Positions 18,945-21,733 of a stretch of DNA of 21,733 nucleotides are shown here, piece by piece. Both the position numbers and the translations under genes were made by a program. Source of the DNA: Myxococcales bacterium (GTDB taxonomy: Bacteria; Myxococcota_A; UBA9042; JABWCM01; BTVJ01); assembly GCA_045863395.1 (NCBI GenBank), contig BTVJ01000110.1:1-21733 (forward strand). The letters are read 5' to 3'. Every line of letters begins with the position of its first letter. Position 1 is the stretch's first letter. The notes beneath the pieces are model-generated. The model was not told the DNA's origin. It made no database searches and saw only the letters and a program-made list of their open reading frames with translations.

Positions 18945-19048
18945 CGTTCCATTCGCTTGCCAGAAGTGGGGTGCTCCGGGTGGAAGGACGCACGACCAGG
19001 GACACGACGGGGACGGCGCTGTGGAGCGGGGTCGCGGCTGCGTGGCGC

Positions 19049-19996
19049 TCACCGGTCCAGGGGGCTGACCACGCCCAGGGGTCCCCGTCGCACCACGTGC
19101 GTGTAGATCATGGTGGTCTTGAGGCTCCGGTGCCCCAGCAGAGACTGGATGACCCGGATGTCCGTCCCCGCCTCCAGCAGGTGCGTCGCGAAGCTGTGGC
19201 GCAGGGTGTGGGCGCCAGCCTTCTTGTCGATGCCCACGGCGACTACGGCGTCGTGCACGCTCGACTGCACGCCCCGCTTCCCGATGCAGGGTCGCCGCGA
19301 CCCTCCGGTGTCGTCGGTCTCGAGGCCGTCCGCTGGGAACACCCACTGCCAGGTCAGCTCCCGCGCGGCGTTCGGGTACTTCTGCCCGAGGGCGTGCGGA
19401 AGCTCGATGGGGCCGACCCCTGCGGCGAGGTCCTGGCGGAGCGTCGCCGCGACGGACTCGATCTGCGCTCGCAGGGCGGGGACGAGGGTGCGGGGAAGCA
19501 GCGTCACCCGGTCCACCTGCCCCTTCCCCCGGCGCACGATGATCTGCCCCCGCCCGAAGTCCACATCCTGCACACGGAGCCGCGCACACTCACCGAGTCG
19601 GAGGCCGGACCCGTACAGCACCCGAGCCGGACTCTCGTGGGGCGGAGCCACGTGGTCGAGGACCGCGGCCACCTCGTGCGGGTCCAGTACGACGGGGAGA
19701 CGACGCGGCTTGTTAGAGCACGGGAAGGATTGCAGGTCGCCGAGGTCGATCTCCAGCACGTGCCGGTAGAAGAACAAGATGGCGCACAGCGCCTGGTTCT
19801 GCGTGGACGCGGCGAGGCGTCGCTCGACGACCAGGTGTGTCAAGAAGGCGGTGACATCGTCGGGCCCCAGGCCACGCGGGTGCTTCAGGTCGTGGAAGCA
19901 GATGTACCGCCGCGCCCACTCCACGTAGGCCTCCTCGGTGGCCTTCGCGTAGTGGCGCCGGCGCAGCACGGCACGCAGTCTCTCCAGCAGCTTCAT
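19049..19996 (-). CDS. intI: Integron integrase, catalytically complete copy
   Basis: N-terminal SAM-like domain (STQNQAL); R (YGSGLRLGE), K (RRGKG), HxxR (HTLRHSFA), LGH and Y (TMIYTHV); integron patch LPHALGQKYP...WQWVFP; C-terminal SPLD. Confidence 0.93.
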   Translation of the reverse strand: MKLLERLRAVLRRRHYAKATEEAYVEWARRYICFHDLKHPRGLGPDDVTAFLTHLVVERRLAASTQNQALCAILFFYRHVLEIDLGDLQSFPCSNKPRRLPVVLDPHEVAAVLDHVAPPHESPARVLYGSGLRLGECARLRVQDVDFGRGQIIVRRGKGQVDRVTLLPRTLVPALRAQIESVAATLRQDLAAGVGPIELPHALGQKYPNAARELTWQWVFPADGLETDDTGGSRRPCIGKRGVQSSVHDAVVAVGIDKKAGAHTLRHSFATHLLEAGTDIRVIQSLLGHRSLKTTMIYTHVVRRGPLGVVSPLDR

Positions 19997-20008
19997 GGGA
20001 CCCTCCGC

Positions 20009-20995
20009 TCAGAGTGGGAGCCCGCGGGCGGCGCGCTGGCTCATGGGGAGCCCGTCCAGCGGACTGTTGGGGGAGTTCTGGGCCTTTGCAGCGACCTGCT
20101 CGTAGACCATCGTGGTGCTCACGCTCTGGTGCCCGAGCAGAGTCTGGACGGTACGAACGTTGGACCCGCCCTCGATGAGGTGGGCAGCGAAGCTGTGCCG
20201 CAGGGTCAGGCAGCTCGCGCGCTTGGGTATTGCAGCGTCGATGACCGCCTTCCGCGCGGCCCTCTGCATGGCCGACGGGTCGATGTGCCAGCGCCGGCGC
20301 ACCCCCGATGCGGGATCCACGCTGATCCGAGACGCGGGAAACAGCCACTGCCAGCCGAGCTTCCGCTCCTCGTCACCGCGGCGACCACCGAAGCTCCGGG
20401 GCAGCGGCGCCGTGCCAAAGCCGGCGCGCAGGTCGTCCCCGTGGATTCGTGCGACCTCCTCGATCTGCGTAGTGAGGGGGCCGACAAGGGCGTCGGGCAA
20501 CAGGGTCGCGTGATGCACCTCCCCCCGCTCGTCACGGACCATTGTCTGCCTCTGAGCAAAGTCGAGGTCCCGCACCCGCAGCCCGACGCACTCGGCCAGG
20601 TGCAGCCCGGCGCCGTAGATCAGCCGCCCCATCAGCCCGTAAGCCTTGGGCAGGCGCTCGATGACCGCGAACACCTCGTCCCGGGTGAGCACGACAGGCA
20701 GATTCCGCGCCTTCTTGGCGAAGGCGGTGGAGTCGAGACCCAGGTCGATACCGAGCACCTCCCGGTACAGGAACAGGACGGCGCACAGAGCTTGGTTCTG
20801 GGTAGAGGACGCCACGGTTCGCTCGATGGCCAGGTACTCGATCCACGCGAGCACCTCAGCCTTCCCCATGGTGGCGGGGTGCCGGATACCGTGGAACCGG
20901 ATGAACCGGAGGATCCACCGAACGTAGGTGTCCTCCGTGGTAGCCGAGTACTCCTTGGCTCGCAGCACCGCGCGCACCCGATCCATCAACTTCAT
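20009..20995 (-). CDS. intI: Integron integrase paralogue, intact ORF but predicted catalytically inactive
   Basis: ATG at 20995 with GGAGG RBS; same architecture ([40 protein letters not shown]), but YGAGLHLAE (R>H), RDERG (K>R) and CLTLRH (H>L). Confidence 0.88.
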
Positions 20996-21175
20996 TGCGT
21001 CCTCCACTGGCAGTCTGTGGCGCGGCCCGCTTCGGCTCCCGTCGGGCGACGCTGCGGACTTTTTTCACGACGCAGGCCGCGCCCGTCACTTTCGGGGCGC
21101 CGCACGGGTCTATCGACGCGCCCGAGGCGCGGGTCCGGCGCAATTACCGTGCGGTGGTCGAGAGCCATTGGAGCA

Positions 21176-21194
21176 CCCCATAGGTCAGTTCGCC
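21176..21194 (+). other. Candidate attI simple site CCCCATA-GGTCA-GTTCGCC
   Basis: 7-5-7 layout ending in a GTT core, about 190 nt upstream of the integrase starts and divergent from them, as expected for attI. attI sites are poorly conserved, so this is tentative. Confidence 0.35.
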
Positions 21195-21616
21195 CGGTGT
21201 CGGCATCAGCGTCCGCGCCGACTACGGCGGCCCCCTCCGCACCGTGCCGGCCCACCACCGCCACACCAGAGCACCTCCACCATTACGACGGCGAGCTCGC
21301 AGTAGAACACCACCAGGTCCAGCAGATGTATTGCAGCGAATCCGGCAAGGATCGCCCGAGGCACCGAGGTCGCTCCACTGGCACCGGCACCCGCCCTGAG
21401 CGGCTCGTGCACCACACTGCCATAAACGGTCTCTACAGCGGCTTCCACGGCAGCAGCGCAGCACAACCGCCTCCACGTCGTTCTTCCACTGCCGGAAACG
21501 CAGCGGCCGACGCCACGCTGCGGGCTTCCACTGCGGCTTCGCAGCGAGAGAGGTCACGGCGCTGCAGCCAGGTCGGCGACACGCCGAGCAGTGCCGCGGC
21601 CCTCCGTGCTTCCACC

Positions 21617-21671
21617 ACCGTACTGTTTGCGGCTTGTACTGCGGGGGCTGCCGCTGAAAGCATAGTTCGGT
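21617..21671 (+). other. Degenerate attC-like hairpin, or a second simple site (ACCGTAC...GCGGC-loop-GCCGCTGAAAGCATA-GTTCGGT)
   Basis: The ends are near-inverted (ACCGTAC vs GTTCGGT, 1 mismatch) with an inner GCGGC/GCCGC stem. The left arm is 5 nt short and has TAC instead of AAC. Confidence 0.3.
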
Positions 21672-21733
21672 CCCTAATCGCGACGGAATGGTGGCGTTGC
21701 GACATACCGCGCTTCGGCCGAGGACAACGTGGG

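Follow-up and report, generated by a model that had tools for sequence, protein, structure and literature searches.

The window analyzed here (the whole stretch of DNA, 21,733 nucleotides [nt]) is the entire contig C110 of a Myxococcales bacterium with a genome of 8.77 Mb, 71% G+C, and 186 contigs. Two integron integrase (IntI) genes are found at the right end of the contig, arranged head to tail on its minus strand: gene A, downstream, encodes a catalytically complete IntI, and gene B, upstream, encodes an IntI paralogue whose active site is degenerate. Sequence evidence of five independent kinds is best explained if A and B form a division-of-labour heteromer, a reading to which we assign a probability of roughly 0.55 and which a convergent second case strengthens.

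Gene A (19049 to 19996, minus strand) encodes a protein of 315 amino acids (P0121). Gene B (20009 to 20995, minus strand) encodes a protein of 328 amino acids (P0001) from the ATG at 20995, with a GTG at 21007 as an alternative start. The TGA stop codon of B and the ATG of A are separated by a 12-nt spacer (19997 to 20008, minus strand; GCGGAGGGTCCC on the coding strand) containing a GGAGG-like ribosome-binding motif. Both proteins score above the cutoff of NCBIfam TIGR02249 "integron integrase" (265 bits), A with 389 bits and B with 332.8 bits (389.1 and 332.5 bits in the genome-wide search), and far under the cutoffs of the XerC and XerD models. Both Pfam integrase domains are present in each, and the two proteins are identical at 145 of 315 positions (46%). 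Codon-position G+C in B is as in a normal gene, with a third-position value (GC3) of 0.82 to 0.93. A single 2,729-nt RNA-library contig (run X5) spans positions 18966 to 21694 and thus both genes, with DNA carry-over possible.

Residue equivalences to VchIntIA (PDB 2a3v), the numbering of which is used below, were established by HMMER alignment (E values of 9.3e-79 for A and 2.2e-63 for B) and confirmed codon by codon, as the initial annotation had proposed. The IntI-specific region (VchIntIA ~199 to 243), which comprises the I2 helix together with the beta-4,5 hairpin, aligned gap-free in both proteins, and W219 and the F-P motif are retained in both. The helix and hairpin constitute what is called the IntI "additional domain" between patch III and box II (PMC2426708, accessible text). 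According to the accessible text of the VchIntIA-attC synapse study (PMC3053210), the non-attacking subunit holds T12'' in cis through P232, H240, and H241, and the attacking subunit makes its trans contacts with G20'' through Q145, W157, K209, Y210, and W219; the cis and trans roles cited in the initial annotation agree with this account. An IntI1 mutant, K219A/Y220A, was made to weaken the trans contact (PMC11641012, accessible text).

Protein A retains R135, K160, H267, R270, H293, Y302, Q145, K209, Y210, and W219. Its active-site set R-K-H-R-H-Y is complete (R133, K158, H263, R266, H289, and Y298 in its own numbering), and in its I2-helix pocket (19349 to 19381, minus strand) K209, Y210, and W219 are encoded at 19379 to 19381, 19376 to 19378, and 19349 to 19351, respectively. 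Its hairpin (19283 to 19321, minus strand; ETDDTGGSRRPCI) has D in place of P232 (19310 to 19312), P in place of H240 (19289 to 19291), and C in place of H241 (19286 to 19288). In B, the active-site set is incomplete: R135 is replaced by H (20600 to 20602), K160 by R (20525 to 20527), D163 and R164 by HH (20510 to 20515), and H267 by L (20207 to 20209), so that H132, R157, and L263 of its own numbering stand for R135, K160, and H267. In the I2 helix of B, SFGGRRG replaces ALxxKYP (20375 to 20395, minus strand), with R for K209, R for Y210, and G for P211. B is predicted to be catalytically inactive. It retains W219, D231, P232, H241, R270, H293, and Y302, and its hairpin (20285 to 20323, minus strand) keeps D231 and P232 (20312 to 20317) and H241 (20285 to 20287), with W in place of H240 (20288 to 20290).

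The peptides and coordinates quoted in the initial annotation were exact on the minus-strand translation (19283 to 19321, KY at 19376 to 19381, 20285 to 20323, and SFGGRRG at 20375 to 20395). Its description of an active copy that keeps the K/Y and W pocket and lacks the hairpin Pro and His-His holds for K209, Y210, and W219 and for the three replacements in A. Its description of the dead copy was right about the loss of KY and the kept hairpin (D-P and H241) and wrong about the His-His pair, as B has W-H.

The losses were set against a background of 232 other IntIs, collected with both A and B as queries. R135, K160, and W219 are each present in all 232 proteins (232/232), H267 and H241 each in 230, and K209 in 229; Y210 is Y or F in 198 and M or L in 33. 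Position 240 is His or aromatic in 228 of the 232, and a W there, as in B, occurs in 4 of these ordinary IntIs. P232 is found in 188 (81%), and because of this limited conservation its loss in A carries little weight. The objection that solo IntIs commonly lack the hairpin residues is therefore refuted for H240 and H241 and only partly for P232. When the 116 alignment columns with conservation of 90% or more were scanned without bias, both members of the B-clade deviated at 23 of them and the A-clade at 10. The B-clade deviations are concentrated in the ArgI, GKGxKDR, HxxR, and YTH motifs and in ALxxKYP, and B keeps 93 of the 116 columns.

B has one close relative, P0002 (67% identical), and A has two, P0122 (69%) and P0123 (68%). 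P0002 shows the pattern of B with different replacement residues: Q, R, and Q at positions 135, 160, and 267, R-A-R at 209 to 211, D-P kept, and F-H at 240 and 241. P0122 and P0123 have all of the catalytic residues, K-L-P in the I2 helix, D or H at 232, and P-H at 240 and 241; K209 and W219 are invariant in the A-clade. In the trees, both clades receive full support and group together with 316-amino-acid IntIs, including Sorangium- and Deltaproteobacteria-labelled proteins. The stem branch of B is longer than that of A (0.97 versus 0.53), with crown branches of 0.36 and 0.39 in B versus 0.32, 0.33, and 0.44 in A.

A strain ~97% identical to the window, represented by contigs of RNA-library run X17, allowed recent changes to be counted. 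In B, 19 codons differ, 12 synonymously and 7 non-synonymously, with a ratio of non-synonymous to synonymous polymorphism (pN/pS) of 0.21 (binomial P = 0.0009 versus neutrality); in A, 12 codons differ, 7 synonymously and 5 non-synonymously (pN/pS, 0.26; P = 0.02). By this comparison, B is maintained under purifying selection and is not decaying. Identities of individual segments since the split of the A and B lineages, with B versus P0002 as the B pair, point to reciprocal constraint. In the beta-4,5 hairpin, the B pair is identical at 24 of 27 positions and the A pairs at 12 to 14 of 26 to 27 (Fisher P = 0.006); the hairpin is the best-kept segment of B (67% for the whole protein) and the least constrained segment of A. 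The asymmetry is reversed in the K-loop (B pair, 13/23; A pairs, 18 to 21/23; Fisher P = 0.017) and in the Tyr region with the tail (B pair, 12/25; A pairs, 23/25; Fisher P = 0.0015).

Additional relatives were sought in several collections. B-clade patterns retrieved 8 loci in genome contigs, which were rejected as ordinary IntIs of 42 to 47% identity, and no match in viral contigs. The A-clade alignment retrieved at least 80 ordinary IntI loci from metagenome contigs, and the P0123 contig was absent among the matches listed. A search for short B fragments gave one 160-amino-acid match (39% identity), which was discarded as unrelated.

Recurrence of the pattern in other tandem pairs had been set beforehand as a check, and the reciprocal pattern was present in the sole other pair lineage found. 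Tandem pairs are rare. Among 107 genomes of the window's class, no adjacent IntI pair was found besides that of its own genome, and 18 others had one IntI each. A 401-genome sample of the window's phylum, in which 103 genomes had an IntI match and 13 others had two or more, yielded no further adjacent pair, and a 401-genome sample of a second phylum, in which 150 had a match and 52 had two or more, listed in full, yielded none; the only neighbouring matches in this second sample were the halves of one split gene. The 106 IntI loci from genome and metagenome contigs likewise included no adjacent pair, many of these contigs being short. In the order of an Anaerolineae metagenome-assembled genome (MAG), in contrast, 55 of 145 genomes had an IntI match and 2 had a tandem pair with the degenerate copy upstream.

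The first of these pairs (genome G842, contig C256; 1,897 nt) consists of an upstream gene, g1, cut by the contig end and an intact downstream gene, g2, of 322 amino acids, with a gap of 56 nt, and shows no breakage over the length of the contig; the second is on a 2,132-nt contig (genome G433, contig C266). In both g1 proteins KY is replaced by EE or DE with a 3-amino-acid deletion, and H267 is changed to R, H271 to D, R164 to H, and G159 to R; the D-P...R-R-H-H hairpin is intact, and R135, K160, and Y302 are retained. As R135 and K160 are present, g1 is degenerate rather than certainly dead. In both g2 proteins every catalytic residue and K-Y-P are present, and H240 is replaced by S or D. 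Between G842 and G433, the orthologues are 81% (g1) and 82% (g2) identical overall; in the hairpin, counted by hand over 24 residues, g1 is identical at 22 and g2 at 14. The protein P0135, 73% identical to g2, has R-P at 240 and 241. Overall, position 240 is non-aromatic in 6 of 6 active-type copies (A, P0122, P0123, the two g2 proteins, and P0135), against 4 of 232 in the background, P0135 being among those 4. In the tree, g1 and g2 fall in a starred Chloroflexota-type clade (labelled 95) and A and B in a separate starred clade (labelled 96), and thus two independent duplications are indicated.

Both copies of the G433 pair (locus L123; 700 to 800 and 1800 to 1900) share an 8-residue insertion, GVYPE[RH]SRR, in the HLLExG-DIRTVQ motif, which the G842 pair lacks; this suggests gene conversion between the tandem copies. 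Other candidate pairs were rejected. In locus L019 (1495 to 3629 of contig C1 of genome G064), an IntI gene has a tyrosine recombinase gene directly upstream on the same strand, and in locus L115 (4930 to 8160) a shortened IntI gene is followed by another tyrosine recombinase gene and a 397-amino-acid zinc-finger open reading frame (ORF), which by eye resembles an IS91-type transposase. In both, the second recombinase is of a non-IntI type. The low-scoring second IntI of G293 (contig C5) was set aside as catalytically complete.

With B residues 140 to 250 as the query, a full scan of 1.84 billion representative proteins recovered IntIs without K160 and K209, namely, P0240, P0244, P0261, P0307, P0340, P0351, and P0354, together with fragments. 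Those besides P0240 and P0244 require at least two further origins. Full-length degenerate IntI-like proteins in which the catalytic Lys and K209 are replaced are P0261/P0390, P0340/P0391, P0354, P0307, and P0351. P0261 is annotated "integron integrase [Xylophilus sp. GW821-FHT01B05]" and derives from a complete genome (XAH25018.1); compared with plasmids, it had no relative of more than 47% identity. Degenerate IntIs such as P0340/P0391, P0354, and P0261 may be further partners of this kind.

Since one strand pair is exchanged in integron recombination, the L-box subunits of a homotetramer never need to cleave. A and B would be co-expressed subunits of one mixed integron recombinase. A would be the cleaving ("attacking," R-box) subunit, providing the chemistry and the I2-helix pocket (K209 and W219) that would hold the second extrahelical base in trans; B would be the non-cleaving ("non-attacking," L-box) structural subunit, whose hairpin clamp (D-P and the aromatic-His pair) would hold the first extrahelical base in cis. 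After the tandem duplication, each copy would have been free to lose the functions unused at its own fixed position. We infer that A binds B in a 2:2 stoichiometry, with the R-box and L-box assignment given above, and that the complex would act on the attC-like sites of this genome. A stricter form, an obligate A2B2 in which the dead paralogue is the permanent L-box subunit and the active one the permanent R-box subunit, and which evolved at least twice by tandem duplication, is put forward tentatively, at slightly less than even odds; its origins, as we read them, lie in one IntI lineage of myxobacterial type and one of Chloroflexota type. When the structures of A and B were predicted jointly, the grade was "weak support," with a score of 0.43 versus 0.00 for the best control, agreement of at least 75% of contacts between runs, and a partner confidence (predicted local distance difference test) of at least 81. 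Among solved complexes, 116 of 157 attain the mark for a predicted complex, as do 2 of 215 mismatched pairs; only 18 of the 157 solved complexes, and both passing mismatches, score no higher than 0.60. Resemblance to the solved IntI tetramer may account for the pass.

Several observations weigh against the heteromer. In the whole I2 segment, the asymmetry between the B pair (13/22) and the A pairs (14 to 17/22) is not significant, so the case for this helix rests on K209, Y210, and P211 and the neighbouring A and L. The proposal of the initial annotation that the IntI roles were split between two genes is partly supported, by purifying selection on B, reciprocal conservation, and recurrence, but not by an I2-wide rate asymmetry. 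The losses are also incomplete: B retains W219, and the relatives of A keep H241 and have L at Y210, as M or L is likewise found in 33 of the 232 ordinary IntIs. The strain comparison draws on a single run's contigs and involves small counts, and P0002 and P0122 are presumed to be adjacent from a shared listing of a 10,706-nt longest contig and from their same sources. Both genes of the G433 pair are frameshifted, g2 also with a stop codon, and P0240 and P0244 belong to the B-clade but look decayed; pairs can therefore die. Some degenerate IntIs, such as P0261, lack both KY and H240 and so fall outside the reciprocal pattern. Finally, the IntI of a Gemmatimonadaceae MAG (locus L036; 10001 to 10939) has a complete active site with G at H240 and L at Y210, and no second IntI gene was found in the 10 kb upstream of it, making it a possible solo exception to the H240 pattern.

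Three other explanations were considered. B could be a conserved non-catalytic regulator or accessory factor, either a dominant-negative brake that poisons A tetramers or an occupier of attI or attC sites. This would account for a protein that is crippled yet under purifying selection and that keeps its DNA-facing hairpin and most of its fold (93 of 116 conserved columns), and inactivated tyrosine recombinase domains are reused for DNA targeting elsewhere, as in TnsF (PMC10293859, accessible text). A regulator, however, does not predict the loss of H240 in the active partner, which is seen in both pair lineages (6/6 versus 4/232), and it leaves unexplained why the hairpin is the least constrained segment of A; we consider it unlikely. 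Less probable still is that B is a functionless, dying duplicate whose frame stays open since stop codons are rare at 71% G+C, and of the three we give this the least credence. A published survey called about a third of the intI genes in genomes pseudogenes (PMC2426708, accessible text), a 921-amino-acid chance ORF runs through the same region on the opposite strand, and P0240, P0244, and the G433 pair look decayed. Against such decay, B stands as far from its relatives as A does from its own (67% versus 69%), changes in B are mostly synonymous (12 versus 7; pN/pS, 0.21; P = 0.0009), and B keeps 93 of 116 conserved columns, a hairpin identical at 24 of 27 positions, and a GC3 of 0.82 to 0.93. 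The same intI survey reports more than one intI in a fifth of integron-bearing lineages and about a third as pseudogenes by stop codon or frameshift, and its accessible text is silent on intact dead paralogues (PMC2426708).

Improbable, though less so than decay, is the possibility that the pair acts on another substrate, such as double-stranded mobile-element sites or a resolution site, instead of folded attC, with drift in both copies of the residues that read extrahelical bases and with the reciprocity accidental; by our own estimate, given two motifs and two proteins, reciprocal and correctly oriented loss would arise by chance in ~1 in 4 cases per event. This contig carries no cassette, the genome's attC-like repeats form branched folds, and A (389 bits) and B (332 bits) score low for full-length TIGR02249 matches of the phylum (mostly 400 to 470), all of which would suit such a role. 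It sits poorly with the conservation of the retained motifs (24/27 in the B hairpin; K209 and W219 invariant in the A-clade), with the same outcome having arisen twice, with cassette-like arrays bounded by GTCGAAC...GTTCGRC ends in the genome, and with metagenome contigs that diverge at a GTTCGGT core upstream of B.

The proposed heteromer resembles known systems in part. Like canonical IntIs (IntI1 and VchIntIA, 2a3v), homotetramers whose substrates are folded attC bottom strands, A and B pass the family model and align end to end, and the proposed reaction is the same, with single-strand exchange by two cleaving and two non-cleaving subunits (PMC3053210, accessible text). Unlike in those enzymes, the roles would be hard-wired in two genes, B lacking R135, K160, H267, and K209/Y210 and A lacking P232, H240, and H241. 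XerC and XerD are likewise two paralogous tyrosine recombinases at fixed positions in one synapse, and XerD catalysis is reported to be dispensable in CTX phage integration. That reaction takes place on folded single-stranded DNA, with the exchange of one strand pair and, probably, completion by replication (PMC3442271, accessible text). XerC and XerD differ from the present pair in that both active sites are complete, the genes are usually unlinked, and half-site sequence is read instead of extrahelical bases; A and B are not Xer proteins but recently arisen IntI paralogues. TnsF of Tn6022-like Tn7 elements has a tyrosine recombinase fold kept for DNA recognition without catalysis (PMC10293859, accessible text), but it is partnered by a transposase rather than by an active paralogue within a recombinase tetramer, carries additional zinc-finger domains, and belongs to a non-IntI family. 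In trypanosomes, the prozyme of S-adenosylmethionine decarboxylase is a dead duplicate that forms a working heteromer with its active paralogue (PMC5201418, accessible text); fold and chemistry differ, and only the evolutionary logic is in common.

Upstream of B, the contig ends 726 nt from the GTG at 21007 and 738 nt from the ATG. A candidate attI-type crossover core, GTTCGGT (21665 to 21671, plus strand), a GTTCGRC-like form, lies ~660 nt upstream of B. Metagenome contigs track the window to 21670 or 21674 and then diverge, and others match only from 21665 onward, with a different left flank joined there. This alternative flank, ending in ...AAGCGCAACAC, is the conserved end of repeats found at the starts of contigs C116 and C147. 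The repeats run from GTCGAAC to ...AAGCGCAACAC-GTTCGRC (C147, 32 to 143; C116, 1124 to 1302 and 1 to 89), contain 12-nt tandem units (GGGATTGCCTCC), and fold as branched structures, not as simple hairpins. The starts of C116 (1 to 2750; L119) and C147 (1 to 1100; L120) resemble the ends of a cassette array; by eye, the ORFs between the repeats are a PIN-like and ribbon-helix-helix (RHH)-like pair, a 352-amino-acid ORF, and a MazF-like and RHH-like pair. From its sequence context, the core would be an attI site, canonically divergent in orientation, at which first cassettes can be exchanged, with the C116 and C147 arrays on separate contigs. Whole-genome attC scans with a strict core and with a relaxed core plus hairpin filter each found no array, and both missed the branched attC-like repeats of C116 and C147, so this negative is partly wrong; the relaxed-core scan recovered the arrays of the control loci L052, L076, L030, and L063.

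The contig ends inside a multi-copy element (21631 to 21733, plus strand), related copies of which (84 to 87 nt; 90 to 94% identity) occur at the end of C10 (162787 to 162870) and the start of C114 (1 to 87). Sequencing depth rises 5- to 8-fold at 21655 to 21733 in three of four metagenome runs. The element ends three contigs and is joined or left at the GTTCGGT core in at least four ways; candidate identities are a common first cassette and an insertion element targeting attC/attI-type sites. Between B and the core are 3 to 5 direct copies of a GGCTTCCACTGCGG-like motif, spaced 42 to 108 nt apart (21440 to 21453, 21523 to 21536, and 21631 to 21644; also 21479 to 21494 and 21605 to 21620), which may be accessory integrase-binding repeats like DR1 and DR2 of attI1.

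The genes downstream of the pair are ordinary chromosomal genes for a 2-oxoacid dehydrogenase acyltransferase, a penicillin amidase, a two-component system, and a molybdopterin oxidoreductase. An Rfam scan of the window gave no family at the gathering score, and a promoter and terminator scan gave nothing useful. The ORF at 21433 to 21705 (minus strand), helix-turn-helix-like by eye, was rejected, having no Pfam match and a frame unsupported by GC3. At the other end, the first 30 nt of the window (within 1 to 66) are repeated at position 37 and twice at the end of C146 (10682 to 10775); this short tandem repeat marks an assembly break point.

To our knowledge, the integron integrase has so far been known only as four copies of one protein, and openly available full texts yielded no account of an integron integrase that is heteromeric, nor of tandem IntI pairs whose motif losses are complementary. 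All biochemical and structural work on integrons to date takes for granted a single integrase with two conformations in the synapse. If the division of labour between A and B is real, the conformers would be separate proteins, giving a genetic handle on questions that are hard to address in a homotetramer. Contacts would be sorted by whether they belong to the cleaving or the non-cleaving subunit, as would the reader of each extrahelical base, and the pair would show how strand choice and single-strand exchange are enforced. For annotation, an intI with a ruined active site beside an intact intI is not necessarily a pseudogene. More broadly, the pairs would be a clean case, arrived at twice, of a homomer turned heteromer by complementary loss after duplication, and a non-catalytic subunit would be new to the tyrosine recombinase repertoire.

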